From contig JALTKC010000492.1 in the NCBI GenBank assembly GCA_027076245.1, forward strand, positions 1 to 36,466: a DNA stretch of 36,466 nt, written 5' to 3'. The first letter of the stretch is position 1; each line of letters opens with the position of its first letter. Shown one piece after another: positions 18,853 through 31,075 of the stretch. The position numbers and the translations under genes were made by a program. The DNA comes from Gammaproteobacteria bacterium. Its GTDB lineage: Bacteria; Pseudomonadota; Gammaproteobacteria; GRL18. The notes beneath the pieces are model-generated. The model was not told the DNA's origin. It ran no database searches and saw only the letters and a program-made list of their open reading frames with translations.

Positions 18853-19839
18853 ATGAGTCTATTTCAGCAGATCACACAAGCTAAAGATTGCTTAAGAAAA
18901 AAAATTATTGGCCAGGATGCTCTGGTCAATAAACTGTTTATTGCCCTGCTTGCCGACGGACATTTACTGGTCGAAGGTGCGCCTGGACTGGCCAAGACCC
19001 GGGCCATTAAGGAGCTGGGTGATTTAATTGAGGCCGATTTTCACCGGGTACAGTTTACTCCGGATCTATTGCCTGCGGATTTAACCGGTACGGAAATATA
19101 CCGCCCCCAGGACGGCAGTTTCCACTTTCAGCAGGGGCCGTTGTTTCACAATCTGTTACTGGCCGATGAAATAAACCGCGCACCGGCTAAAGTGCAGTCG
19201 GCATTGCTGGAAGCCATGGCAGAAAAACAGATCACCATTGGCCGAAAAACCTATCCCCTGCCCAAACTGTTTATGGTTATGGCGACCCAGAATCCTATTG
19301 AACAGGAAGGTACCTATCCCCTGCCGGAAGCACAGCTGGATCGTTTTTTAATGCATATCCGCATTGACTATCCGGAACAAAATGCTGAAAAATCCATTCT
19401 GGCTCTCAACCGTCAGGAAGCCCAGCAGGATCTTGTTAACACTCAGAACAGCAAAAATACTGATGGAGATAAATTTGTTATTTCCCAGCAGGTTCTGTTT
19501 GCCGCCCGGCATGAAATTTTAAATATTCATATGAGTCCAGAGGTAGAAGATTATCTGCTAAAAATTATTCTGGCGACCAGAAATCCAAAGCCTTATGATG
19601 AGACACTGGCCAACTGGGTAAACTACGGCGTTAGCCCGAGGGCGACCATTGCTCTGGATCGTTGTGCCCGAGCTCATGCCTGGTTAGCCGGTAAGGACTA
19701 TGTTGCACCGTCTGACATACAGGCAGTAGTAGCCGATATTTTCCGGCACCGGATTTTACTATCTTTTGAAGCCGAAGCAAACGGCATTGACCCGGATTAT
19801 TTTATCAGTAAATTACTGGGCTATATTGCGGTTCCCTAA
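18853..19839 (+). CDS. moxR: MoxR-family AAA+ ATPase
   Basis: 328 aa. Walker A GAPGLAKT, Walker B LLLADEINRA, and the MoxR-type C-terminal region. Confidence 0.92.
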   Translation: MSLFQQITQAKDCLRKKIIGQDALVNKLFIALLADGHLLVEGAPGLAKTRAIKELGDLIEADFHRVQFTPDLLPADLTGTEIYRPQDGSFHFQQGPLFHNLLLADEINRAPAKVQSALLEAMAEKQITIGRKTYPLPKLFMVMATQNPIEQEGTYPLPEAQLDRFLMHIRIDYPEQNAEKSILALNRQEAQQDLVNTQNSKNTDGDKFVISQQVLFAARHEILNIHMSPEVEDYLLKIILATRNPKPYDETLANWVNYGVSPRATIALDRCARAHAWLAGKDYVAPSDIQAVVADIFRHRILLSFEAEANGIDPDYFISKLLGYIAVP

Positions 19840-19851
19840 AGGCGGGTCAAT

Positions 19852-20919
19852 ATGAGTTTGTGGCAAACACTTTTTAATACGCAGGATCATTCCGCCAATA
19901 CTAAAGACACGATGCGTGCTTCCGGTACGGCTCAGGAAGGATCAGACAAGCAGGCAACCCATGTGGATCTGCAGGGTCTGATTCAGCTGCGTTTTCATTC
20001 TTCCCGGATTTCACTGGGATCACAGCGTAAGGCCTTTTCTGCCCTGGCCGGTCAATACATGTCCCCTTTTAAGGGACGCGGTCTGAACTTTGATGAGGTA
20101 CGTCCTTATCAGCCCGGCGATGATATACGCAATATCGACTGGAATGTGACTGCCCGTACTGACCGGGTACACACCAAGGTGTTTAAGGAGGAGCGGGAGC
20201 GCCCGGTATTTATTGTGGTTGATCTCAGCCGCAGCATGTATTTTGGTACCCGCCATTGCCTTAAATCAGTGACAGCAGCCAAGGCCGCGGCCCTGTTTGC
20301 CTGGGCTGGTGCCGATAATCATAATCGTATTGGCGGCGTCGTCTTTAATGACTCTGATCACCGGGAAATGCGTCCCCGGGGCGGTCATCAGGGTGTGTTA
20401 CGTTATCTGAAAATGCTGAGCGATTTTCATAATGCACCGCTGGAAAATACCCTTCCCAATGCAGAGGGGTTTACCACCGATAATCACAATAGTCATTTCA
20501 GCAGTGAATTTTTATTTGCCCGACTGCAGAAACTGATCCACCCCGGCAGTATTGTTTTATTTGCCAGCGACTTTATGAATACCACGGAAACCGCTTTAAA
20601 ACACATTCGTCATATTGCCCGTCACAATGATTTACTTATGGCGCATATTTATGATCCCATTGAAGCCGAGCTGCCGCCGGCAGGCCGTTATGCCATTAGT
20701 GACGGTGAACATTTCCAACAGATTGATACCAGTGATCCGTCTCTGCGTCAGGCCTTTCACCAGTCTTTCACCCGCAAGGAGCAAGAAATAGAACAGTTTT
20801 GCATACACAACCAGAGTAATCTGATTAAACTGGCCACTTATGACAAGGTACCGGAACGCTTTATAGCCGCCCTGGGCAGAGACAATACTACCCGAAGAAT
20901 TGCCAGGAGTCGTCATTAA
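19852..20919 (+). CDS. DUF58-family protein (vWA-like MoxR partner)
   Basis: 355 aa. FKGRGLNFDEVRPYQPGDDIRNIDWNVTAR is the DUF58 signature, followed by FIVVDLSRSM. Confidence 0.88.
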   Translation: MSLWQTLFNTQDHSANTKDTMRASGTAQEGSDKQATHVDLQGLIQLRFHSSRISLGSQRKAFSALAGQYMSPFKGRGLNFDEVRPYQPGDDIRNIDWNVTARTDRVHTKVFKEERERPVFIVVDLSRSMYFGTRHCLKSVTAAKAAALFAWAGADNHNRIGGVVFNDSDHREMRPRGGHQGVLRYLKMLSDFHNAPLENTLPNAEGFTTDNHNSHFSSEFLFARLQKLIHPGSIVLFASDFMNTTETALKHIRHIARHNDLLMAHIYDPIEAELPPAGRYAISDGEHFQQIDTSDPSLRQAFHQSFTRKEQEIEQFCIHNQSNLIKLATYDKVPERFIAALGRDNTTRRIARSRH

Positions 20920-21536
20920 TGCCTGTTACATCGAACAATCCGGTTATAACATCTAATCCGGTTATGACATCCACAGCACCGGGCAATGGTTTTGATCCGT
21001 CTCAACTGGCCGATATTCATTTACCTCAGGCCATTAGTTTCTGGCCCATTGCACCGGGCTGGTGGTTCACCCTCGGGGTAGTGATCATTGCGCTTACCGC
21101 CTTCTGGTTATGGAAAAAACAGCATGAGCGGGATCCGGCCGTGCTGGAACAGCGCCGTCTAAAACGCCTGAAAAGCGAAGCACAGCAAGAGCTGGAAAAG
21201 CTGAAACAGCAATACAAAGCGCAACAAAATGCCCATAAGAGTATAGAAGCACTGTCTGTGTTTCTGCGGCGTTTTGCCCTGTCTGTTTATCCACGGGAGC
21301 AGGTCGCTTCATTAACCGATGAACAATGGCTGAAACTGCTGGATCGTCTTTCCGGAACTGAGGATTTTTCCGGTTGCTTTAAAAATCTGTTACTGGAAGC
21401 CCCCTATCAGGCACCGGATAAAACCATTGATACTCAATTACTGGAACAGTTATTTGCAGCCGCAGAAACGCTGCTGGCGAAAACCGTACAGCAAAAGCTG
21501 AGCGCACAAAAAGATTCCGGAGGTCAGCATGTATAG
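20919..21536 (+). CDS. Small membrane protein of Bat-type operons (DUF4381-like)
   Basis: 205 aa with one TM helix (WWFTLGVVIIALTAFWLW). Its ATG overlaps the upstream TAA (TAATG). Its position between DUF58 and batA is typical of these operons. Confidence 0.65.
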   Translation: MPVTSNNPVITSNPVMTSTAPGNGFDPSQLADIHLPQAISFWPIAPGWWFTLGVVIIALTAFWLWKKQHERDPAVLEQRRLKRLKSEAQQELEKLKQQYKAQQNAHKSIEALSVFLRRFALSVYPREQVASLTDEQWLKLLDRLSGTEDFSGCFKNLLLEAPYQAPDKTIDTQLLEQLFAAAETLLAKTVQQKLSAQKDSGGQHV

Positions 21537-22554
21537 TTTTGACTGGCCCTGGATGTTCCTGCTACTGCCCTTACCTTTACTGGTGTACTGGTTCAGCAAG
21601 CCTCTGGCCAGCACTCAGTCAAAGGCTCTAAAGGTACCGTTTTACCATACCATAGACCAGCTTGGCCGCCGGAGCGCAGCGGTTAATAAAAGCCGTTTTT
21701 CTCCGGCACTGATCCTGGCTTTACTGGCCTGGATATTATTGATTACCGCCAGTGCTCAGCCCAAATGGTCGGGAGAAGCCATATCCATTCCTGTCAGTGG
21801 CCGGGACTTAATGCTGGCAGTGGATATTTCCGGCAGTATGGAGCAGACCGATATGTTTTTTGCCCAGGATGCGGTGGACAGACTGACCGCGGTTAAAGCC
21901 GTTCTGCTGCCTTTTATCAAACAGCGCAAAGGCGACCGCATTGGTCTGATTCTGTTTGGTGATCACGCTTATCTGCAAACACCTCTGACCTTTGACCGTA
22001 AAACCGTTGAACGGATGCTGCTTGAATCCTTTATCGGCATGGCCGGACAACGTGCTACAGCCATTGGTGATGCCATTGGTCTGGCAGTCAAACGTCTGAA
22101 GGATTTGCCCGCAACACAAAGTGAATCCAGAGTCCTGATCCTGCTCACGGACGGTTCCAATAACGCCGGCATTGCACCCTTAACCGCGGCAAAACTGGCC
22201 AAACAGATCGGTATAAAAATTTACACCATTGGTTTTGGTGCTGATGAAATGATCGTACGCTCCTTTTTTGGCCGACAGCGAGTCAATCCCTCCAGAGATC
22301 TGGATGAAAAGACCTTAAAGGAGATTGCCCACATTACCGGCGGCCAGTATTTCCGTGCCAGAGATACCAGGGAACTGCAGAAAATTTATCAGACACTGGA
22401 TCAGCTGGAACCAGTGGAATCCGATAATCTGACGTATCGTCCAACCAAATCTCTGTTTCATCTGCCGCTGAGTCTGGCCTTTGTGCTGGCGATTATGGTG
22501 TATTTACTGCGTCAGTTTTATCAGCCCTTTTATAGCCGGAAGGGAGGTCAATAA
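21529..22554 (+). CDS. batA: BatA-like membrane-anchored vWA protein
   Basis: 341 aa with N- and C-terminal TM helices. vWA MIDAS motifs: LAVDISGSM and LLTDGSNNAG. Overlaps the upstream gene by 8 nt. GGAGG SD. Confidence 0.85.
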   Translation: MYSFDWPWMFLLLPLPLLVYWFSKPLASTQSKALKVPFYHTIDQLGRRSAAVNKSRFSPALILALLAWILLITASAQPKWSGEAISIPVSGRDLMLAVDISGSMEQTDMFFAQDAVDRLTAVKAVLLPFIKQRKGDRIGLILFGDHAYLQTPLTFDRKTVERMLLESFIGMAGQRATAIGDAIGLAVKRLKDLPATQSESRVLILLTDGSNNAGIAPLTAAKLAKQIGIKIYTIGFGADEMIVRSFFGRQRVNPSRDLDEKTLKEIAHITGGQYFRARDTRELQKIYQTLDQLEPVESDNLTYRPTKSLFHLPLSLAFVLAIMVYLLRQFYQPFYSRKGGQ

Positions 22555-24671
22555 TGTTAGCAGATTTTCATTTTTTACGACCTGAGTGGCTGCTGGCTGT
22601 CCCTGTGGTGGCCATTATACTGATTGTGTTTTATCGTCGCTCCAGACAGAGTATCGGCTGGGAAAAGGTGTGTGATCCGGCTTTACTGGACTTTCAGCTC
22701 ACCCGCACCAGAGAAAGCAGCGGTTCTGCTTCACGCCTGTTATTATGGCTGGTTCCCTTAATGTTTCTAATCAGCATTATTGCTCTGGCCGGGCCAAGCT
22801 GGCAGAAAAAAGAACAGCCAGTTTTTCAGAAGGATTCCGCTCTGGTTATTGTGCTTGACCTGTCCCTATCCATGAATGCAAAAGATGTCAAACCTTCTCG
22901 TCTGGAAAGAGCCAAACTTAAAATTATTGATATTTTAAAGCAGAAAAAAGAAGGCCAGACAGCACTGGTAGCCTATGCCGGTGATGCCCATATTGTCAGC
23001 CCTCTGACCATTGATAATAAAACCATTATGTCCCTGCTACCGGCTCTGGACTCTTCCATTATGCCCCTGTCCGGCTCATCTGCAGCAGATGCAATAAAAA
23101 CCGCAAAAGAATTATTAGTCAATGCCGGTTACAACCGGGGGGACATATTATTATTTACCGATGGTATTGATGCTTCAGAACAACTGAAGATAACACAACA
23201 GCTTAAACAACTTGAACAACAGGGCTATCATACCTCTATTATCGGTATCGGTACTCAGGCCGGCTCCCCTATTCCCATTCCCGGTCAGGGAGGCTTTATT
23301 AAGGATCGCTCCGGTCAGGTTATATTAAACAAACTGGAAGAACAGCCCTTAAAAGCCATCGCTCAGGCTGGCGGCGGTTTTTATCATCGTCTGTCACTGG
23401 ATGACAGCGATTTTAAGGAAATTCTGGAACAGAAGTTTATTGATAAAGATAAAGTCAAACAACAGGATGAAGAACTGGAACAATGGATTGATGCCGGAGC
23501 TTATGTCACACTGCTGATTATACCGCTGGCATTATTGATGTTTCGCAAGGGTGTACTCACTCTGTTAGTGGGCTCCTTACTGGTTTCATCCTTGCTGTTG
23601 CCGGTCTTTTATAGTGATCCTGTTATGGCTGAACAGGTATCTGAAAACACGGCTGACATCGCCGCACCTCAGCAAAAAGGCAAGTCCGGCTTTAACTGGA
23701 ATGATCTCTGGCTGACACCGGATCAGCAGGCCGATAAAAGCTTTAAGGCACAGAACTATCAACAGGCAGCCGAAACCTTTAAGGATCCACTCTGGAAAGC
23801 CTCGGCTTATTATCGTGCCGGTCAATATGAACAGGCCTTACAGCAATACAGCCAGTTTGACAGCGCTGATGCCTTATACAACAAGGGTAATACTCTGGCC
23901 AATCTGCAGAAGTTTCCACAAGCCATTAAGGCTTATGAGCAGGCCTTAAAACAAAATCCGGAATTTAAGGATGCCAAAAAGAATCTTGATTACGTAAAAA
24001 AACTTCTGGAACAGCAAAAACAGCAGTCTGGACAGAACAATCAGAAGCAGCAGGATCAAAACAATCAGTCTCAACAGAACAATTCACAGCAGAACCAGCA
24101 ACAGGATCAGTCCGGTAATAAACAGGATTCTCAATCTGACAAAGAATCCGGCAGTGATGGTCAGAAGCAGGAGCAGGAACAACAGAACGATACGGGTAAA
24201 AATCAGGACAAGTCTGAAAATTCCGAATCTGAATCGGACTCAGAACAACAGTCCTCTCAACAGGATCAGGATAAAAGTCAGGAACAGAAAGATCCGTCTT
24301 CTGAACAGCAACAACAGGCAGCTCAAAATGCGCAGCAGGATAACAGCGATCAGCAATCCCAACAGGCGAAACAGCCTGACAGCAAGGAGGAGATTGAAAA
24401 AGCCAGAGAGCAGGCCGCTCAGGCTGCACAGACTCAGGAAGATCAATCTGAGGAACATGATCAGGACAAAGAGCAGCACAATGAGCAGGCACAGGCTCCG
24501 GCCGATCTTATGTCACAGCTCAGCCAGGAAGAACAGCAATCCATGAAACAGTGGTTACAGCGGATCCCGGATAACCCCGGTGAACTGCTGAGAATTAAAT
24601 TCAGGAACAATACATTGATTAAACAAAGACAACAGCAAAGTCCGCAACAATACGAGGGTAACCCATGGTAA
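22554..24671 (+). CDS. batB: BatB/BatC-like fusion: vWA domain, TM helices, TPR repeats and a long Q/S/D/E-rich tail
   Basis: 705 aa. vWA motifs VLDLSLSM and LLFTDG, mid-protein TM helices, and TPR-like AYYRAGQYEQALQQY...AIKAYEQALKQNP. The low-complexity tract is followed by MKQWLQRIPDNPGELLRIKF. TAATG overlap with batA. Confidence 0.85.
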   Translation: MLADFHFLRPEWLLAVPVVAIILIVFYRRSRQSIGWEKVCDPALLDFQLTRTRESSGSASRLLLWLVPLMFLISIIALAGPSWQKKEQPVFQKDSALVIVLDLSLSMNAKDVKPSRLERAKLKIIDILKQKKEGQTALVAYAGDAHIVSPLTIDNKTIMSLLPALDSSIMPLSGSSAADAIKTAKELLVNAGYNRGDILLFTDGIDASEQLKITQQLKQLEQQGYHTSIIGIGTQAGSPIPIPGQGGFIKDRSGQVILNKLEEQPLKAIAQAGGGFYHRLSLDDSDFKEILEQKFIDKDKVKQQDEELEQWIDAGAYVTLLIIPLALLMFRKGVLTLLVGSLLVSSLLLPVFYSDPVMAEQVSENTADIAAPQQKGKSGFNWNDLWLTPDQQADKSFKAQNYQQAAETFKDPLWKASAYYRAGQYEQALQQYSQFDSADALYNKGNTLANLQKFPQAIKAYEQALKQNPEFKDAKKNLDYVKKLLEQQKQQSGQNNQKQQDQNNQSQQNNSQQNQQQDQSGNKQDSQSDKESGSDGQKQEQEQQNDTGKNQDKSENSESESDSEQQSSQQDQDKSQEQKDPSSEQQQQAAQNAQQDNSDQQSQQAKQPDSKEEIEKAREQAAQAAQTQEDQSEEHDQDKEQHNEQAQAPADLMSQLSQEEQQSMKQWLQRIPDNPGELLRIKFRNNTLIKQRQQQSPQQYEGNPW
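24010..24500 (+). repeat. Low-complexity Gln/Ser/Asp/Glu/Asn/Lys-rich coding tract within batB/C
   Basis: About 160 codons almost free of hydrophobic residues (QQKQQSGQNNQKQQDQNNQSQQNNSQQNQQQDQSG...). The boundaries are approximate. Confidence 0.7.
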
Positions 24672-26443
24672 GAAAGACGCTTAATACAATAATGGGTCTT
24701 AAATTGCAGTATATTATGCTCATTTTGCTGACACTCAGTTTCTCTACCCCCTTATGGGCGGATGTCAGGGCTACAACGGACCGAACCGTAGTGGCTATTG
24801 ATGAAACTATTACACTGAATATTCAGTCCAAAAACGGTTCCGGTTCTCCGGATCTGGGTGTGCTGAAAAAAGATTTTCAGATCCTGGGACAAAGTCAGAG
24901 CCAGAACTACAGTTTTATTAATGGCCATGCGTCCAGTACCCAGACCTGGACCATTACCCTATTACCCAAATCAACCGGTGAACTGACCATTCCTGCCATT
25001 AAGGTCGGCAATGAACATACCCAACCAATACCTCTGGTTATTCAGAAACAGTCCACCACACCAGCACTGGACGGCAAGGAGGTCTTTTTAAAGCTGCAGC
25101 TATCTGCTGAAGACAGTGTTTATGTACAGCAGCAGATCCTGTTAACCGTGCAACTGTATCATCGTATCCGACTGGCCAATGCCACCTTAACCGATCTGGA
25201 ACTGAACAATGCCGTTATTGAAAAACTGGGTAATGACAGCAACTATACCAAGGTGATCGGGAAAAACCGCTACAATGTGATAGAACGTCAATACGCCATT
25301 TATCCCCAACAAAGCGGTACATTAACCATTCCGTCACTGACCTTTTCCGGTAATAAGGAAATCGGCCAGAGCTTTTCCCTGTTTTCACGTCCAGGACGTC
25401 AGCTGATCAGCCGTACCGAACCGGTTACCATTAACGTTAAACCCATTCCGTCCAGCTATACAGGTCAATACTGGCTGCCTGCTGAGTCGGTGGTACTGGA
25501 ATCGGAAATTCTGGAAGATACAAATAATATTAAAGCCGGAGAGGCCATTACCCGGCATATTATTATCCGGGCCACCAATCTTCTGGGTTCTCAACTTCCG
25601 GCCATCAGCATGGCTTCAAACAGCGATTATAAAACCTATCCTGATAAGGAAAAACTCAATAACCAGCTGGTTAACGGCAAAGTCATAGGCAGCCGTAAAG
25701 ACACCATTGCCATTATTCCCTTACATCCGGGGCCGTTTACCCTACCTGAAATCAAGGTCAGCTGGTGGAATACCCTAAGCAATAAACAGGAAACCGCTGT
25801 TCTGCCGGCTCGAACACTTAACGCTCTGCCTAACCCCGATATGCAGACTCAGTCGGCTCCCAAACCACCTACACCTGCACCGGTAATCAAACCACAACCG
25901 GTTCAGCCAGTTGCCAATAGCACAAAAAGTGATAATTCAATGCCTGAACGCACTGAAAATTCCCTTGAAAAAATCATTACAGCAGAGCCGCACTTTACTA
26001 AAAACCGCTGGTTCTGGGTCAGTATGGGCTTACTGATATTATGGCTGATAACACTGATATTATGGCTTTCTGCCAGAAAAAAACAGACGGCACCAGCCGT
26101 AGTGACAGCCCCCGTACCGAAAGAGTCACACGAGCCTTATTTACAGCGTGTCTATGCTGCCTGCCGGAAAAATAATCCCGCAGCCATTCAGGAGGCTCTG
26201 GTGCAGTGGGCAAAAGTTTACTTTAATCAGCCTTTGCTGGCCGGTTTATCGGACATTATTGAACAGACGGATGATCAGGCTCTAATCAGGGCCATTACCG
26301 GCCTGGAGGCATCCAGGTATTCCAGCCATAAACAGAACTGGGAGAGTAAGGAACTGGAAAAAGCCCTGCAGAATTTTATTGCACAACAGAATAAGCGTAA
26401 TAACGATGGTGACGGACAGGTATTGGCAGAACTCAACCCATAA
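24665..26443 (+). CDS. batD: BatD-like protein
   Basis: 592 aa. Signal peptide, a large extracytoplasmic region, a Pro-rich linker, one C-terminal TM helix (WFWVSMGLLILWLITLILWL) and a cytoplasmic tail. Overlaps batB/C by 7 nt. Confidence 0.8.
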   Translation: MVRKTLNTIMGLKLQYIMLILLTLSFSTPLWADVRATTDRTVVAIDETITLNIQSKNGSGSPDLGVLKKDFQILGQSQSQNYSFINGHASSTQTWTITLLPKSTGELTIPAIKVGNEHTQPIPLVIQKQSTTPALDGKEVFLKLQLSAEDSVYVQQQILLTVQLYHRIRLANATLTDLELNNAVIEKLGNDSNYTKVIGKNRYNVIERQYAIYPQQSGTLTIPSLTFSGNKEIGQSFSLFSRPGRQLISRTEPVTINVKPIPSSYTGQYWLPAESVVLESEILEDTNNIKAGEAITRHIIIRATNLLGSQLPAISMASNSDYKTYPDKEKLNNQLVNGKVIGSRKDTIAIIPLHPGPFTLPEIKVSWWNTLSNKQETAVLPARTLNALPNPDMQTQSAPKPPTPAPVIKPQPVQPVANSTKSDNSMPERTENSLEKIITAEPHFTKNRWFWVSMGLLILWLITLILWLSARKKQTAPAVVTAPVPKESHEPYLQRVYAACRKNNPAAIQEALVQWAKVYFNQPLLAGLSDIIEQTDDQALIRAITGLEASRYSSHKQNWESKELEKALQNFIAQQNKRNNDGDGQVLAELNP

Positions 26444-28036: not shown

Positions 28037-28780
28037 ATGTCCAATTCACCACATATAAAATGGCTTGCCAGCGGAGAACCCTATTCTGAACAGTTTCAGG
28101 ATTATTATTTCTCAACTGACGGCGGGCTGGCGGAAACAGAGTATGTTTTTTTAAAACAAAACAAATTTCCACAACGCTTTGCCCAGTCTGATGAGTATCA
28201 GGAAACAGCATTAATTAAAATTGGTGAAACCGGGTTTGGCACCGGGCTTAACTTTCTGGTCACTCTGTATCACTGGCTGCATACCCCAGAACCCAAAAAA
28301 CCGGTACATTATATGTCTGTTGAAAAATATCCGTTCAGCAAAGTTCAGTTAAGCAGAATATACACCCTGTTTTCAAAACAATGGCCGCAACTGGATGAGC
28401 CATGCAGACTATTACTTAATGCCTGGCCTGACTCATTAAGCTCGCAGTCTGTTTTTGAGTACTCGTTTTTTGAACAGCAATTTAAACTGACTCTGTTAAG
28501 CGGGGATGCCCAGCTGGAATTATCTGCCCTGCTCCCAGAGCATAAACACTCTTTTGATGCCTGGTATCTGGACGGTTTTGCTCCGGCCAGAAATCCCGAT
28601 ATGTGGCAGCAGGGCTTGTTTAACACCCTGTATCAGCTCAGCAAACCCGGTACAACATTAAGCACATTTACCGCAGCGGGTTTTGTGCGAAGAGGTCTGA
28701 CACATGCCGGATTTACCATTAACAAGGTCCCCGGTCTGGGAAAGAAAAGAGAAATCCTTTCAGGCATATACCATAATTAA
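28037..28780 (+). CDS. mnmC: Stand-alone tRNA mnm5s2U34 methyltransferase (MnmC methyltransferase domain only)
   Basis: 247 aa. QDYYFSTDGGLAETEYVFL, GETGFGTGLNFL and DAWYLDGFAPARNPDMW match the N-terminal SAM-methyltransferase half of MnmC. No FAD-oxidoreductase half follows. Confidence 0.8.
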   Translation: MSNSPHIKWLASGEPYSEQFQDYYFSTDGGLAETEYVFLKQNKFPQRFAQSDEYQETALIKIGETGFGTGLNFLVTLYHWLHTPEPKKPVHYMSVEKYPFSKVQLSRIYTLFSKQWPQLDEPCRLLLNAWPDSLSSQSVFEYSFFEQQFKLTLLSGDAQLELSALLPEHKHSFDAWYLDGFAPARNPDMWQQGLFNTLYQLSKPGTTLSTFTAAGFVRRGLTHAGFTINKVPGLGKKREILSGIYHN

Positions 28781-28900: not shown

Positions 28901-28991
28901 ATTTACCCGTAGACTATTTATTTTGTTCCTAACTTCCTTATAATTTATATGGAGATAATAAAAAACTGTTAAGCATGGAATGCAAAAACAG

Positions 28992-29008
28992 TTCTTATAA
29001 TATAAGAA
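28992..29008. promoter_or_regulatory. Palindrome TTCTTATA-A-TATAAGAA containing a TATAAT hexamer
   Basis: 8-bp perfect arms. TATAAT at 28996-29001 lies ~36 nt upstream of TTG 29037. Candidate -10 element overlapped by an operator. Confidence 0.4.
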
Positions 29009-29036
29009 TAAACAACCAACTAAGGGGGATTTTCTT

Positions 29037-30035
29037 TTGAACAGAAGAAACTTTATTAAATCCAGCGGGGCAGGTCTTGCCAGTATTATGCTGGGAAGCA
29101 CAGGATTATTATCCTGGACTCCCAGAGCTCATGCAGCAACCATATCCAAAACCTTTTATATAACCGAAGGCACTATTACTCAACCCGATGGTGTAGATGT
29201 TTACTTCTGTGGTTTTAGTAATGATACTGCCAGTCTTAATGTGCCCGGCGCTCAACTTATTGTCCAGGAAGGTGACACTGTTGCTATTACCATCGTTAAT
29301 ACCTTAACAACAGACCACAGTTTTGTGATTGATGGCGTTGTGGACAGCGGTGTAATTAAAGCAGGTACCACGAAAAATTTTGAATTTATTGCCAGTAAAG
29401 CCGGCTCATACCTTTACTATGACGGTTTAAATGCACCATACAACCGACTGGTCGGATTACATGGCGGTTTCTCAGTCATGCCACAGGGCAGCAGTGATGA
29501 ACTTTACCCTGGAAGTCCTACCTTTGTTCAGCAATATTCCTGGATCACCAATGATGTCGATCCTGTCTGGCATAATGCTGTACGTGACGGCAATACCCCC
29601 ACAAGCAAGTTTAAACCTTACTATTTTACCCTGAACGGCCGTAGCATGCGGGTACCTGGAAATCCTGACTATGGTAATCCTGATATCGATTCCGGATATG
29701 CCAAAGACACCCGTCTCACAGGTTCCATAGGTGACAGAACACTGGTTCGAATTCAAAATGCCGGTTTATGTATGCACTCTATGCATTTCCATGCCAACCA
29801 CGTTGAATGGCTGACCCGCAACCGGGTTATCCGCGATGTCTGGGTTAAAGATACCGTATTCCTGCCCAATAATATAGGCAGTGTTGATGTTATTTACCCC
29901 TTTGAAACACCGCCAGACTCCTGGCCACCCGTCTCTAAAGGTCATTATCCCATGCATTGCCATGACGAAATGACTCAAACAGCCGGTGGCGGTTTATACC
30001 AGTTTGGCCTTGCAACAACAATTTCATTTGAATAA
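29037..30035 (+). CDS. Tat-exported two-cupredoxin multicopper-oxidase-like subunit A (ligands only in the C-terminal half)
   Basis: 332 aa. TTG start with an AAGGGGG SD. Twin-arginine signal MNRRNFIKSSGAGLASIMLG...AHA. HSMHFH (nt 29775-29792) and HCH (29955-29963) lie in the C-terminal half. The N-terminal half lacks HxHG and HxH. Confidence 0.8.
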   Translation: MNRRNFIKSSGAGLASIMLGSTGLLSWTPRAHAATISKTFYITEGTITQPDGVDVYFCGFSNDTASLNVPGAQLIVQEGDTVAITIVNTLTTDHSFVIDGVVDSGVIKAGTTKNFEFIASKAGSYLYYDGLNAPYNRLVGLHGGFSVMPQGSSDELYPGSPTFVQQYSWITNDVDPVWHNAVRDGNTPTSKFKPYYFTLNGRSMRVPGNPDYGNPDIDSGYAKDTRLTGSIGDRTLVRIQNAGLCMHSMHFHANHVEWLTRNRVIRDVWVKDTVFLPNNIGSVDVIYPFETPPDSWPPVSKGHYPMHCHDEMTQTAGGGLYQFGLATTISFE

Positions 30036-30049
30036 GGGGGAATAATATT

Positions 30050-31024
30050 ATGGGAATGAGAAACAGAAACGGTGGCGGCGGCGGTGGCGGCGGTGCCTGT
30101 TATATCTATCCAGATGCACCTGCCACTATCGGTGAAGTAACTCCGGATGTTACTTTTAATCGCGGTATTTATATGAATGGCAGCATGACCATGGACGATG
30201 GTCGTACAGTCACAATATGGGGCTTTACTGATGGCGGAGGCGGCATGGGAGGACAGTTCCCCTCACCCGCCATGCGTGTCACACAGGGACAGGTTGTTCA
30301 TTCAGTTCTGACCGTTAATGGCAATATGTGGAAACATACCATCCATCACCATGGTATTGAACCCAGTACTGAAAATGATGGTGTCGGTCATTATTCTTTT
30401 GATGTCAGCGGCACATACACCTATCAATGGAAAGCTGCCCATCCCGGCACTTATTTTTACCATTGTCATACTAATACTGTACTGCATGCAGAAATGGGCA
30501 TGTATGGTGCACTGATTATTGATCCACCCGAAGGTCCCGGTACTTTATTCTCCGGTGGACCAACTTATGATGTTGAAGCTATCTGGGCATGTGATGAAAT
30601 TGATTCATCCTGGCATAATCTTAGATGGGATGCCGGTACCTGTGGCGGTGATGTCGGTCTAAACGATCTGAATCCGGACTATTTTATTATTACCGGAGTG
30701 GATGGCGCACGCTCTGCACTGACTGATCCAGCCGTCGCTGTTAATATGAATGTAGGCCAGAAACTGCTGGTACGCTATATCTGTGCCGGTTATTTACCTC
30801 AGCGGATTAATTTTGGTGGTTTAACTGCAACCGTTCATATGTCCGACGGTCGTCCTTTTCCTAAACCTATACAGGTTAAGGAAATTGAAGCCTGTTCAGC
30901 AGAACGCTATGACTGTATTTTTGAACCCACTCAAAGCGGTGTTTATGAAGTTACCGTAGACTTCCTTGACTGGGTAACCGGTGATGTAGTGGGAACTGCA
31001 AGAACACGCATTACCGTCAACTAA
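30050..31024 (+). CDS. Signal-less two-cupredoxin multicopper-oxidase-like subunit B (ligands only in the N-terminal half)
   Basis: 324 aa. Starts 14 nt after subunit A with the same AAGGGGG SD. An in-frame TGA at 30029-30031 excludes a longer N-terminus. HTIHHHG and YHCHTNTVLHAEMGM lie in the N-terminal half. There is no hydrophobic signal segment. Confidence 0.8.
   Translation: MGMRNRNGGGGGGGGACYIYPDAPATIGEVTPDVTFNRGIYMNGSMTMDDGRTVTIWGFTDGGGGMGGQFPSPAMRVTQGQVVHSVLTVNGNMWKHTIHHHGIEPSTENDGVGHYSFDVSGTYTYQWKAAHPGTYFYHCHTNTVLHAEMGMYGALIIDPPEGPGTLFSGGPTYDVEAIWACDEIDSSWHNLRWDAGTCGGDVGLNDLNPDYFIITGVDGARSALTDPAVAVNMNVGQKLLVRYICAGYLPQRINFGGLTATVHMSDGRPFPKPIQVKEIEACSAERYDCIFEPTQSGVYEVTVDFLDWVTGDVVGTARTRITVN
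30071..30094 (+). repeat. (GGY)8 triplet tract encoding Gly8
   Basis: GGTGGCGGCGGCGGTGGCGGCGGT encodes residues 8-15 of subunit B. Confidence 0.9.
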
Positions 31025-31043: not shown

Positions 31044-31075
31044 AAAAAAAAGCCGGATTAAACTCCGGCTTTTTT
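31044..31075. terminator. Bidirectional intrinsic terminator between oxidase subunit B and acnB
   Basis: An A-run, AGCCGGA-TTAAAC-TCCGGCT (31051-31070), then a T-run. Confidence 0.85.

Follow-up and report, generated by a model that had tools for sequence, protein, structure and literature searches.

Adjacent genes for two-domain multicopper oxidase chains with complementary copper-ligand losses, predicted to form a heteromeric oxidase exported by the Tat pathway

We analysed two adjacent genes, here termed A and B, on a contig of 36,466 nt (JALTKC010000492.1, positions 1 to 36,466, assembly GCA_027076245.1; the whole stretch is hereafter called the window) from a gammaproteobacterium of the GTDB lineage GRL18. 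Each gene encodes a chain of two cupredoxin domains. The eight histidines of a trinuclear copper cluster are reached only by A and B together, neither chain alone having more than four. We think it likely that A and B are duplicated chains of the type-C two-domain multicopper oxidase (MCO) kind, known from the Nitrosomonas europaea blue copper oxidase (3G5W) and the metagenomic mgLAC (2ZWN), which have lost their copper ligands in complementary fashion and would function only as a hetero-oligomer, with periplasmic Cu(I) oxidation as the likeliest role. The features of the locus are as follows, where Tat denotes twin-arginine translocation and HMM a hidden Markov model.

29021..29029, + strand: Shine-Dalgarno sequence of A, TAAGGGGGA, 7 nt 5' of the TTG start
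29037..30035, + strand: gene A, TTG start, 332 aa; two cupredoxin domains and a Tat signal; starts MNRRNFIKSSGAGLASIMLG...PRAHA, followed across the predicted cleavage point by AT
29037 on, + strand: N-terminus of A up to the predicted cleavage, MNRRNFIKSSGAGLASIMLGSTGLLSWTPRAHA, then AT (from the translation)
29037..29135, + strand: twin-arginine signal peptide of A, M1-A33 (N-R-R-N-F-I-K; predicted cleavage between AHA and AT), from the motif, HMM scores and conservation
29775..29792, + strand: A domain 2 motif H247-S-M-H250-F-H252; cluster ligands predicted at H250 and H252, from conservation and the alignment to 3G5W
29952..29963, + strand: A domain 2 motif M306-H307-C308-H309; cluster ligands predicted at H307 and H309, from conservation and the alignment to 3G5W
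30033..30041, + strand: Shine-Dalgarno sequence of B, TAAGGGGGA, overlapping the TAA stop of A
30050..31024, + strand: gene B, ATG start, 324 aa; two cupredoxin domains, no signal; starts MGMRNRNGGGGGGGGACYIYP
30050..30100, + strand: low-complexity Gly/Met tail at the N-terminus of B, ending at the invariant Cys17 (C-Y-x-Y-P); C17 in 77/77 orthologs
30335..30352, + strand: B domain 1 motif H96-T-I-H99-H100-H101; H96 a type-1 ligand, H99 and H101 cluster ligands; aligned to HTIHWHG of 3G5W; 77/77 orthologs
30461..30502, + strand: B domain 1 motif H138-C139-H140-x5-H146-x4-M151; Cys, His and Met of the type-1 site, plus two flanking His of the cluster; falls on HCHVNVNEHVTMRGM in the 3G5W alignment; invariant
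31046..31075, strand not assigned: hairpin terminator AAAAAAGCCGGA-UUAAAC-UCCGGCUUUUUU; -18.4 kcal/mol, z = -4.8, with 0/200 shuffles folding as well

Domain 1 of B contains a full and invariant type-1 site (H96, C139, H146 and M151). The original prediction had assigned it this site together with four cluster histidines, and the motifs lie where it placed them and recur in 77/77 B orthologs, which keep all eight His and C139. Residues H84, H96, H99-H101, H114, H138, C139, H140, H146, M151, C17 and C198 are invariant in an alignment of 22 B sequences. The C-terminal half of B had been described as lacking ligand motifs, and neither an HxH nor a conserved His in the motif regions was found in domain 2 of the window protein or of the 22-sequence alignment. 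A NirK-like type-2 site was also considered for B and is ruled out, domain 2 having no conserved His.

Domain 1 of A has no copper ligands and no type-1 site, and contains the sequences TTDH94SF and VGLH142GG. The proposed loss of ligands from this half of A is thus confirmed; the placing of VGLHGG at the position of an HxH motif is not, since L141 aligns with M151 of B. In domain 2, H250 and H252 are present in 74/74 A orthologs and H307 and H309 in 73/73, counting one genome per species, and a 22-sequence alignment shows H94, H250, H252, N254, H255, M306, H307, H309 and E311 to be invariant and H142 nearly so. The HxxHxH and HCH sequences that had been noted in this half are present in the window protein. 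However, at position 247 the 74 orthologs have His in 53 cases and Gln in 20, and at position 308 the 73 have Leu in 63 cases, Phe in 7 and Cys in just 2. As neither H247 nor C308 is kept, the conserved motif of A domain 2 is HxH plus M-H-x-H-x-E, and the "HCH" is an accident of the window sequence. A vestigial type-1 site at H247 and C308 was ruled out for the clade on the same count. Cys is common at the position of residue 308 in the wider A-like superfamily (57/116).

A further conserved set surrounds the former type-1 site in domain 1 of A: H94 (29316-29318), D129 (29421-29423), N136 (29442-29444) and H142 (29460-29462). An Asp stands in place of the type-1 Cys at position 129 in 130/144 superfamily representatives, and the alignment leaves it ambiguous whether H94 occupies the place of the type-1 His or that of the first cluster His. 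H94, Asp129, N136 and H142 could form a non-blue metal site or a substrate site rather than reflecting mere decay.

A and B are paralogous and align with one another across both domains (hhalign probability 98.8%, E 1e-16, 240 columns). In this alignment Y128-D129-G130 of A is paired with H138-C139-H140 of B, N136 with H146 and L141 with M151, with H142 of A one residue past the axial-Met position; in domain 2, HSMHFHANH of A lies opposite PQRINFGGL of B. The motifs of each protein therefore face non-ligand residues in the other, and the loss of ligands is reciprocal. A search of both proteins against Pfam, which the original prediction had proposed, found Cu-oxidase_3 in A (E 5e-7) and in B (E 7e-15) as well as a sub-threshold TAT_signal match in A. 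No NCBIfam model came near its cutoff for either protein: with TIGR01480 (copper_res_A) B reached 71.4 bits and A 21.7, where 479 are required, while NF008205 (CueO) gave 35 bits against 525, and TIGR02376 (NirK) 44 bits for B and 26 for A against 296.

Among known structures, 3G5W and 2ZWN are the best sequence and fold matches of B and the best fold matches of A. B aligns with 3G5W (E 4e-19) and 2ZWN over both domains. In domain 1 its HTIHHHG falls on HTIHWHG of 3G5W and its YHCHTNTVLHAEMGM on YHCHVNVNEHVTMRGM, so that the ligand motifs are matched residue for residue; in domain 2 it has LPQRINFGGL where 3G5W has HVHAIHTHGH, with N254 and G256 opposite the two His of HTH. The family profile of A places HsvHfH on HAIHTH and MHlH on IHDH of 3G5W domain 2. 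The AF2 model of B (pLDDT 70.6, pTM 0.75) has 3G5W and 2ZWN as its best Foldseek matches (E 8e-20, TM about 0.6), as does the model of A (pLDDT 59, pTM 0.58), which is poor and was used for fold-level matching only.

The likeness to the type-C oxidases extends to the chain length of about 320 aa, the two cupredoxin domains, the type-1 copper in domain 1 (here of B) and a trinuclear cluster at the contact of one chain's domain 1 with a second chain's domain 2 (here predicted). However, the type-C enzymes are homotrimers in which every chain has all twelve ligands and which hold three clusters, whereas the ligands here are split between paralogs: relative to a type-C homotrimer, A is without the domain 1 set (Y128-D129-G130 standing for HCH) and B is without the domain 2 set. 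A homotrimer of either A or B would on this pattern be dead, and only a B-to-A interface would be catalytic.

To find how far the arrangement is distributed, 185,579 species genomes were scanned for the pattern. A was encoded in 174 of them, and 80 A loci were fetched, which together with the locus of Sulfuriflexus mobilis gave 81. The hosts are overwhelmingly chemolithotrophs of sulfur and iron (Thiohalobacter, Thiogranum, Thioalkalispiraceae, Thiobacillus, Sulfuriferula, Gallionellales and Sulfurimonas). A homolog search with the protein of Thiobacillus denitrificans strain RG had no ATCC 25259 entry among the matches listed. B lies directly downstream of A on the same strand in 78/78 informative loci, the contigs of the other 3 of the 81 ending at or just after A; this is the outcome anticipated by the original prediction, which had called for such a survey. 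The gap between the stop of A and the start of B is typically 10-30 nt, and when the search was started from two B proteins, A was found upstream of both. Pairwise distances among A orthologs correlate with those among B orthologs (r = 0.73), which fits co-inheritance and is not decisive alone. The complementary ligand pattern is, judging from ligand positions that are invariant across 74 A and 77 B orthologs, not a product of chance.

With half of the canonical ligands gone from each chain, A and B might instead be taken for a decaying, functionless duplicate of a two-domain oxidase in which pseudogenisation is under way. We regard this as next to impossible. Purifying selection is strong, the best 120 matches of A being 63-93% identical to it and the best 120 of B 68-88%, and mean column identity in the 22-sequence alignments is 75% for A and 69% for B. 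Moreover, the pattern has been kept in at least 174 species and in distant clades, the open reading frames are intact, and both Shine-Dalgarno sites and the terminator are in place.

An exhaustive profile search recovered 139 A-like clusters (50% identity) at E<=1e-30. The best 150 A-like representatives comprised 108 of A type, defined by the absence of Cys at position 129 and the presence of all four domain 2 His, 7 complete type-C-like chains and 35 fragments. Four A-like genes, from four distant clades, were inspected; each is followed by a B-like gene, with overlapping start and stop codons in two cases, and in all four B-like partners the ligands of domain 1 are complete, domain 2 lacks an HxH, and there is no signal peptide. 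Six of the representatives (P0261, P0279, P0308, P0254, P0247 and P0388) are single chains with the order A-linker-B. Their N-termini bear a twin-arginine signal in P0254, P0247 and P0308, a Sec-type signal in P0388 and a lipoprotein-like one in P0279, P0261 being cut at that point. The fusions recur in independent assemblies: the P0279 cluster has 4 members (NCBI, JGI and ENA), P0308 has a sister of 810 aa, and P0254 is represented by an NCBI protein. Single-chain fusions are classical evidence of interaction and so argue that A and B interact; they set A domain 2 beside B domain 1, between which the cluster is predicted to lie. No circularly permuted B-to-A fusion, an arrangement that would argue for a closed four-domain ring, was found among the matches of the A-like superfamily.

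The fusions also bear on the possibility that A and B act apart, A as a periplasmic copper-binding or scaffold protein and B as a blue-copper protein of the cytoplasm, in which case the His pairs would be relics or would bind copper outside a cluster, as in sequestration. B does lack a signal peptide, and a signal-like hydrophobic stretch is absent from all 77/77 B proteins; each protein alone, moreover, scores as a cupredoxin-domain protein. Nevertheless this reading is highly improbable. Adjacency is strict and the gaps are short, the eight His are exactly complementary and invariant over a wide divergence, and most of the fusions stand behind an export signal, so that in those forms the B moiety necessarily leaves with A. 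A type-1 copper protein in the cytoplasm would itself be unusual. Lastly, the N-terminal Cys and C198 of B, invariant in the clade, are both present or both missing in 9/9 distant sequences; this covariation suggests a disulfide, which fits an extracytoplasmic location.

The tail that ends at the N-terminal Cys is hypervariable in B. It ranges from 4 to about 60 aa across the orthologs, contains 38% Gly, 12.5% Met and about 19% Ser/Thr, and closes with an invariant motif of a small residue followed by Cys-Tyr-x-Tyr. It is made up of Gly/Met, poly-Thr/Ser or Asp-Gly repeats and resembles the linker of the A-B fusions. The tail could represent what is left of a linker, an arm that binds Cu(I), or the two at once.

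Other cupredoxin arrangements with several units also occur. P0273 begins with a Sec signal, after which come a complete type-C two-domain unit, an A-like unit and, at the C-terminus, a plastocyanin-like domain; P0358 consists of tandem two-domain units without any copper ligands; and P0327 and P0355 retain a single unit with residual HxH motifs. In a distant clade, a large CHRD-domain protein directly precedes an A-B pair (L084, 2960-4966) and an A-B fusion (L085, 2745-4967), and that of L085 also has cytochrome c and Sod_Cu-like matches. This protein may be an electron donor or a partner of the oxidase.

The central proposal of the original prediction was that neither chain could build a cluster alone, that B domain 1 and A domain 2 would together supply eight His, that the heteromer would be obligate, and that B would be exported on the Tat signal of A. 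As far as sequences can speak to it, this proposal held in every comparative test. The comparisons establish the sequence anatomy, the paralogy of A and B, the invariance of the ligands, the adjacency of the genes, the lack of a signal on B and the occurrence of fusions; a physical A:B interface, the co-export of the two chains, and any particular stoichiometry or substrate are inferences from them. A and B would assemble in the cytoplasm, and the signal-less B would hitch-hike to the periplasm on the twin-arginine signal of A, with copper probably inserted after export. Domain 1 of B would hold the blue type-1 copper (H96, C139, H146, M151), and a single trinuclear cluster would form at the interface of B domain 1 and A domain 2, to which B would contribute H99, H101, H138 and H140 and A would contribute H250, H252, H307 and H309. 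Electrons from the substrate would enter at the type-1 site of B and pass over the Cys-His bridge (C139) to the cluster, where O2 would be reduced to water, A domain 1 and B domain 2 serving as copper-free scaffold domains.

The twin-arginine signal that had been recognised on A is supported by conservation: an RR motif (RRxF) occurs in essentially all A orthologs, with R3, R4 and F6 nearly invariant in the 22-sequence family alignment, while its HMM scores are sub-threshold. One part of the original prediction, folding with copper before export from the cytoplasm, is not required: Tat exports CueO without copper (PMC6708511), and Rhodobacter CutO receives its metal from copper moved to the periplasm by CopA (PMC8456105). 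Export of a heteromer that is already assembled is the simpler explanation for the Tat route. In this A and B resemble the Tat hitchhikers of Escherichia coli, hydrogenase-2 (HybOC) and DmsAB, in which the signal is likewise on one subunit only, the signal-less partner is encoded alongside, and assembly before export is implied (Rodrigue et al. 1999, as cited in PMC6708511). However, those enzymes receive NiFe, FeS or molybdopterin cofactors in the cytoplasm, and the Tat-exported CueO and CutO are single chains that can cross without copper.

We know of no hitchhiker pair among MCOs, and to our knowledge the characterised MCOs (laccases, CueO, ceruloplasmin and the two-domain homotrimers) are all single chains or homo-oligomers. 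The original prediction knew of no characterised split example, and none came to light: the full-text literature searched described no heteromeric, split, two-subunit or four-domain MCO and none that hitch-hikes on Tat, and no curated NCBIfam family covers A or B. In the sources the two proteins are annotated only as "multicopper oxidase domain-containing protein" or "FtsP/CotA-like". The two-domain oxidase Nmar_1354 of Nitrosopumilus maritimus (PDB 9CCK) resembles A and B in having crystallised as an alpha-alpha-alpha-prime heterotrimer. This arises because proteolysis removes an extra cupredoxin from one copy of what is the product of a single gene, and all its chains have the full ligand set (PMC11761707); it is therefore ruled out as a precedent for a two-gene MCO. 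The principle of an inter-subunit cluster is already known from homotrimeric two-domain oxidases, and its split over two genes is apparently undescribed.

Six-domain ceruloplasmin and the three-domain laccases and CueO are similar to the proposed heteromer in that one cluster lies between two specific cupredoxin domains while the others are degenerate scaffold, and the A-B fusions resemble such multi-domain single-chain oxidases. In those enzymes, however, a single polypeptide places its cluster between the first and last domains, whereas here there are two polypeptides (four domains if fused) and the two cluster-forming domains, the second of A and the first of B, follow one another in gene order. 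We lean towards regarding A and B as members of a widespread and so far unrecognised architectural class of MCO, heteromeric, or four-domain when fused, in which reciprocal ligand loss after duplication would have left one catalytic B-to-A interface per pair, with B carried by Tat hitch-hiking. Such a class would stand as a living intermediate, with the homotrimeric two-domain oxidases on one side and multi-domain oxidases with a single cluster, such as ceruloplasmin, on the other, and the conserved residues that replace the ligands in A domain 1 (H94, Asp129, N136 and H142) could form a new site for a substrate or a metal.

If this is correct, an O2-reducing cluster built from two different polypeptides would be a new architecture, and A and B would be the first MCO exported as a Tat hitchhiker complex. 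The loss of redundant sites has been postulated in models that derive three- and six-domain oxidases from two-domain trimers. The A-B system displays a shedding of redundant copper sites after duplication, with both split and fused forms available for testing. It also has a bearing on annotation: hundreds of genomes of sulfur and iron oxidisers call both genes "multicopper oxidase domain-containing protein", motif screens would score each of them as defective, and A or B expressed alone would give inactive protein.

Evidence for the role comes from synteny. Genes for a CusB-type membrane-fusion protein with heavy-metal-binding domains (HMBD) and a CusA-type resistance-nodulation-division (RND) pump lie within 6 kb in about 25/81 loci. 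In about 20 loci they come directly after B in the same direction, as a string A-B-cusB-cusA, mostly in betaproteobacteria, with one gammaproteobacterial locus (L031). Examples are Thiobacillus denitrificans RG (L069, 6001-12605) and the betaproteobacterial sulfur and iron oxidisers of loci L062-L080, where the order is A-B-cusB(HMBD)-cusA. In two further loci, reached from B proteins, RND and membrane-fusion genes with regulators flank A-B. CusB and CusA are the only neighbour families to recur across separate lineages (beta- and gammaproteobacteria). The periplasmic cuprous oxidases CueO, PcoA and CopA resemble A-B in the Tat signal and in the periplasmic MCO chemistry predicted for A-B. They may also resemble it in Met-rich segments and in linkage to copper efflux genes, as B tails contain 12.5% Met and CusB/CusA-type genes lie near about 25/81 loci, the window not among them. 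They are three-domain single chains, however, and for A-B a copper role is drawn from synteny only. Met-rich segments are typical of oxidases that handle Cu(I). Given the CusBA linkage and the Gly/Met-rich segments of B, we tentatively favour the oxidation of periplasmic Cu(I) for copper tolerance as a possible role. If the CusBA link reflects function, A-B would be an unrecognised determinant of copper tolerance in chemolithotrophs of vents, sediments and aquifers.

A heteromer with the same inter-subunit copper site might act on a substrate other than copper: Fe(II), Mn(II), cytochrome c or another redox protein (as a periplasmic terminal oxidase), a nitrogen oxide or hydroxylamine, by analogy with two-domain oxidases of archaea, or one of the sulfur compounds characteristic of its sulfur-oxidising hosts. 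The hosts are almost all chemolithotrophs of sulfur or iron, and the related Nitrosopumilus two-domain oxidase oxidises hydroxylamine (PMC11761707). The CHRD-domain proteins that precede the distant A-B pair and fusion, one of them with cytochrome c and Sod_Cu-like matches, point the same way, as does a gene for a Crp/Fnr-type regulator upstream in 9 loci. However, there is no enrichment of FNR/CRP-boxes upstream of A (1 match in the 81 loci, with 1.2 expected), genes of the sulfur or nitrogen cycle are not consistently adjacent, the sole neighbour link that recurs across lineages is CusB/CusA-type efflux, and the Met-rich segments of B are of the Cu(I)-handling kind. We therefore consider a non-copper substrate unlikely.

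Several points weigh against a copper-oxidising A:B heteromer. About 70% of the loci, the window included, are without nearby copper or efflux genes, which favours another substrate; the neighbours in the window (ferritin, carbonic anhydrase and aconitase B) are housekeeping genes and give no functional clue; and a conserved regulator site for A-B was sought and none found. The signal of A falls just below the cutoffs, with 18.2 bits against 22.7 for Pfam TAT_signal and 16.0 against 16.7 for TIGR01409. Taken by itself, the match of A domain 2 to the second domain of 3G5W is weak (domain E 3.4), and the monomer models of A and B are of moderate confidence only (pLDDT 59 and 71). Finally, in known two-domain oxidases three chains make up a closed ring of six domains, an arrangement that A and B cannot reach as a 1:1 pair. 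AB (as an open four-domain unit), A2B, AB2 or larger assemblies are thus all possible.

At the nucleotide level, the stop of A and the start of B are 14 nt apart on the same strand. B had been predicted to begin at this distance behind a Shine-Dalgarno sequence identical to that of A, and the coordinates are borne out: TAAGGGGGA occurs in exactly 2 copies in the 36 kb window, each just 5' of the start of A or B. As the copy preceding B overlaps the TAA stop of A, translation of the two genes is suggested to be coupled. The in-frame TGA that had been said to block a longer N-terminus of B is present at 30029-30031 and closes the B frame upstream. The hairpin at 31046..31075 is flanked by A and T runs and lies between the convergent genes B and acnB; because this strong hairpin parts B from the aconitase B gene, A-B is a self-contained bicistronic unit.

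Upstream of A, the interval 28961-29008 (28-75 nt 5' of the start) contains an inverted repeat, AAAAACTGTT-N16-AACAGTTCTT, and a perfect palindrome, TTCTTATA-T-TATAAGAA. These palindromes could be assigned to no known operator, and no sigma-70 promoter above background was found upstream of A.

The neighbours of A-B in the window are a MoxR/Bat operon and genes for ferritin, carbonic anhydrase, an MnmC-type methyltransferase, AcnB and PurB, all of a housekeeping kind. The operon (18853-26443) is a complete MoxR(AAA_3)-DUF58-DUF4381-VWA-VWA/TPR-BatD array of the Bat/aerotolerance type and lies upstream of the ferritin and carbonic anhydrase genes. The methyltransferase gene (28037-28780) encodes a stand-alone Methyltransf_30 protein of 247 aa, which corresponds to the methyltransferase half of MnmC without the FAD oxidoreductase domain. 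The contig that forms the window also occurs in metagenome assemblies.

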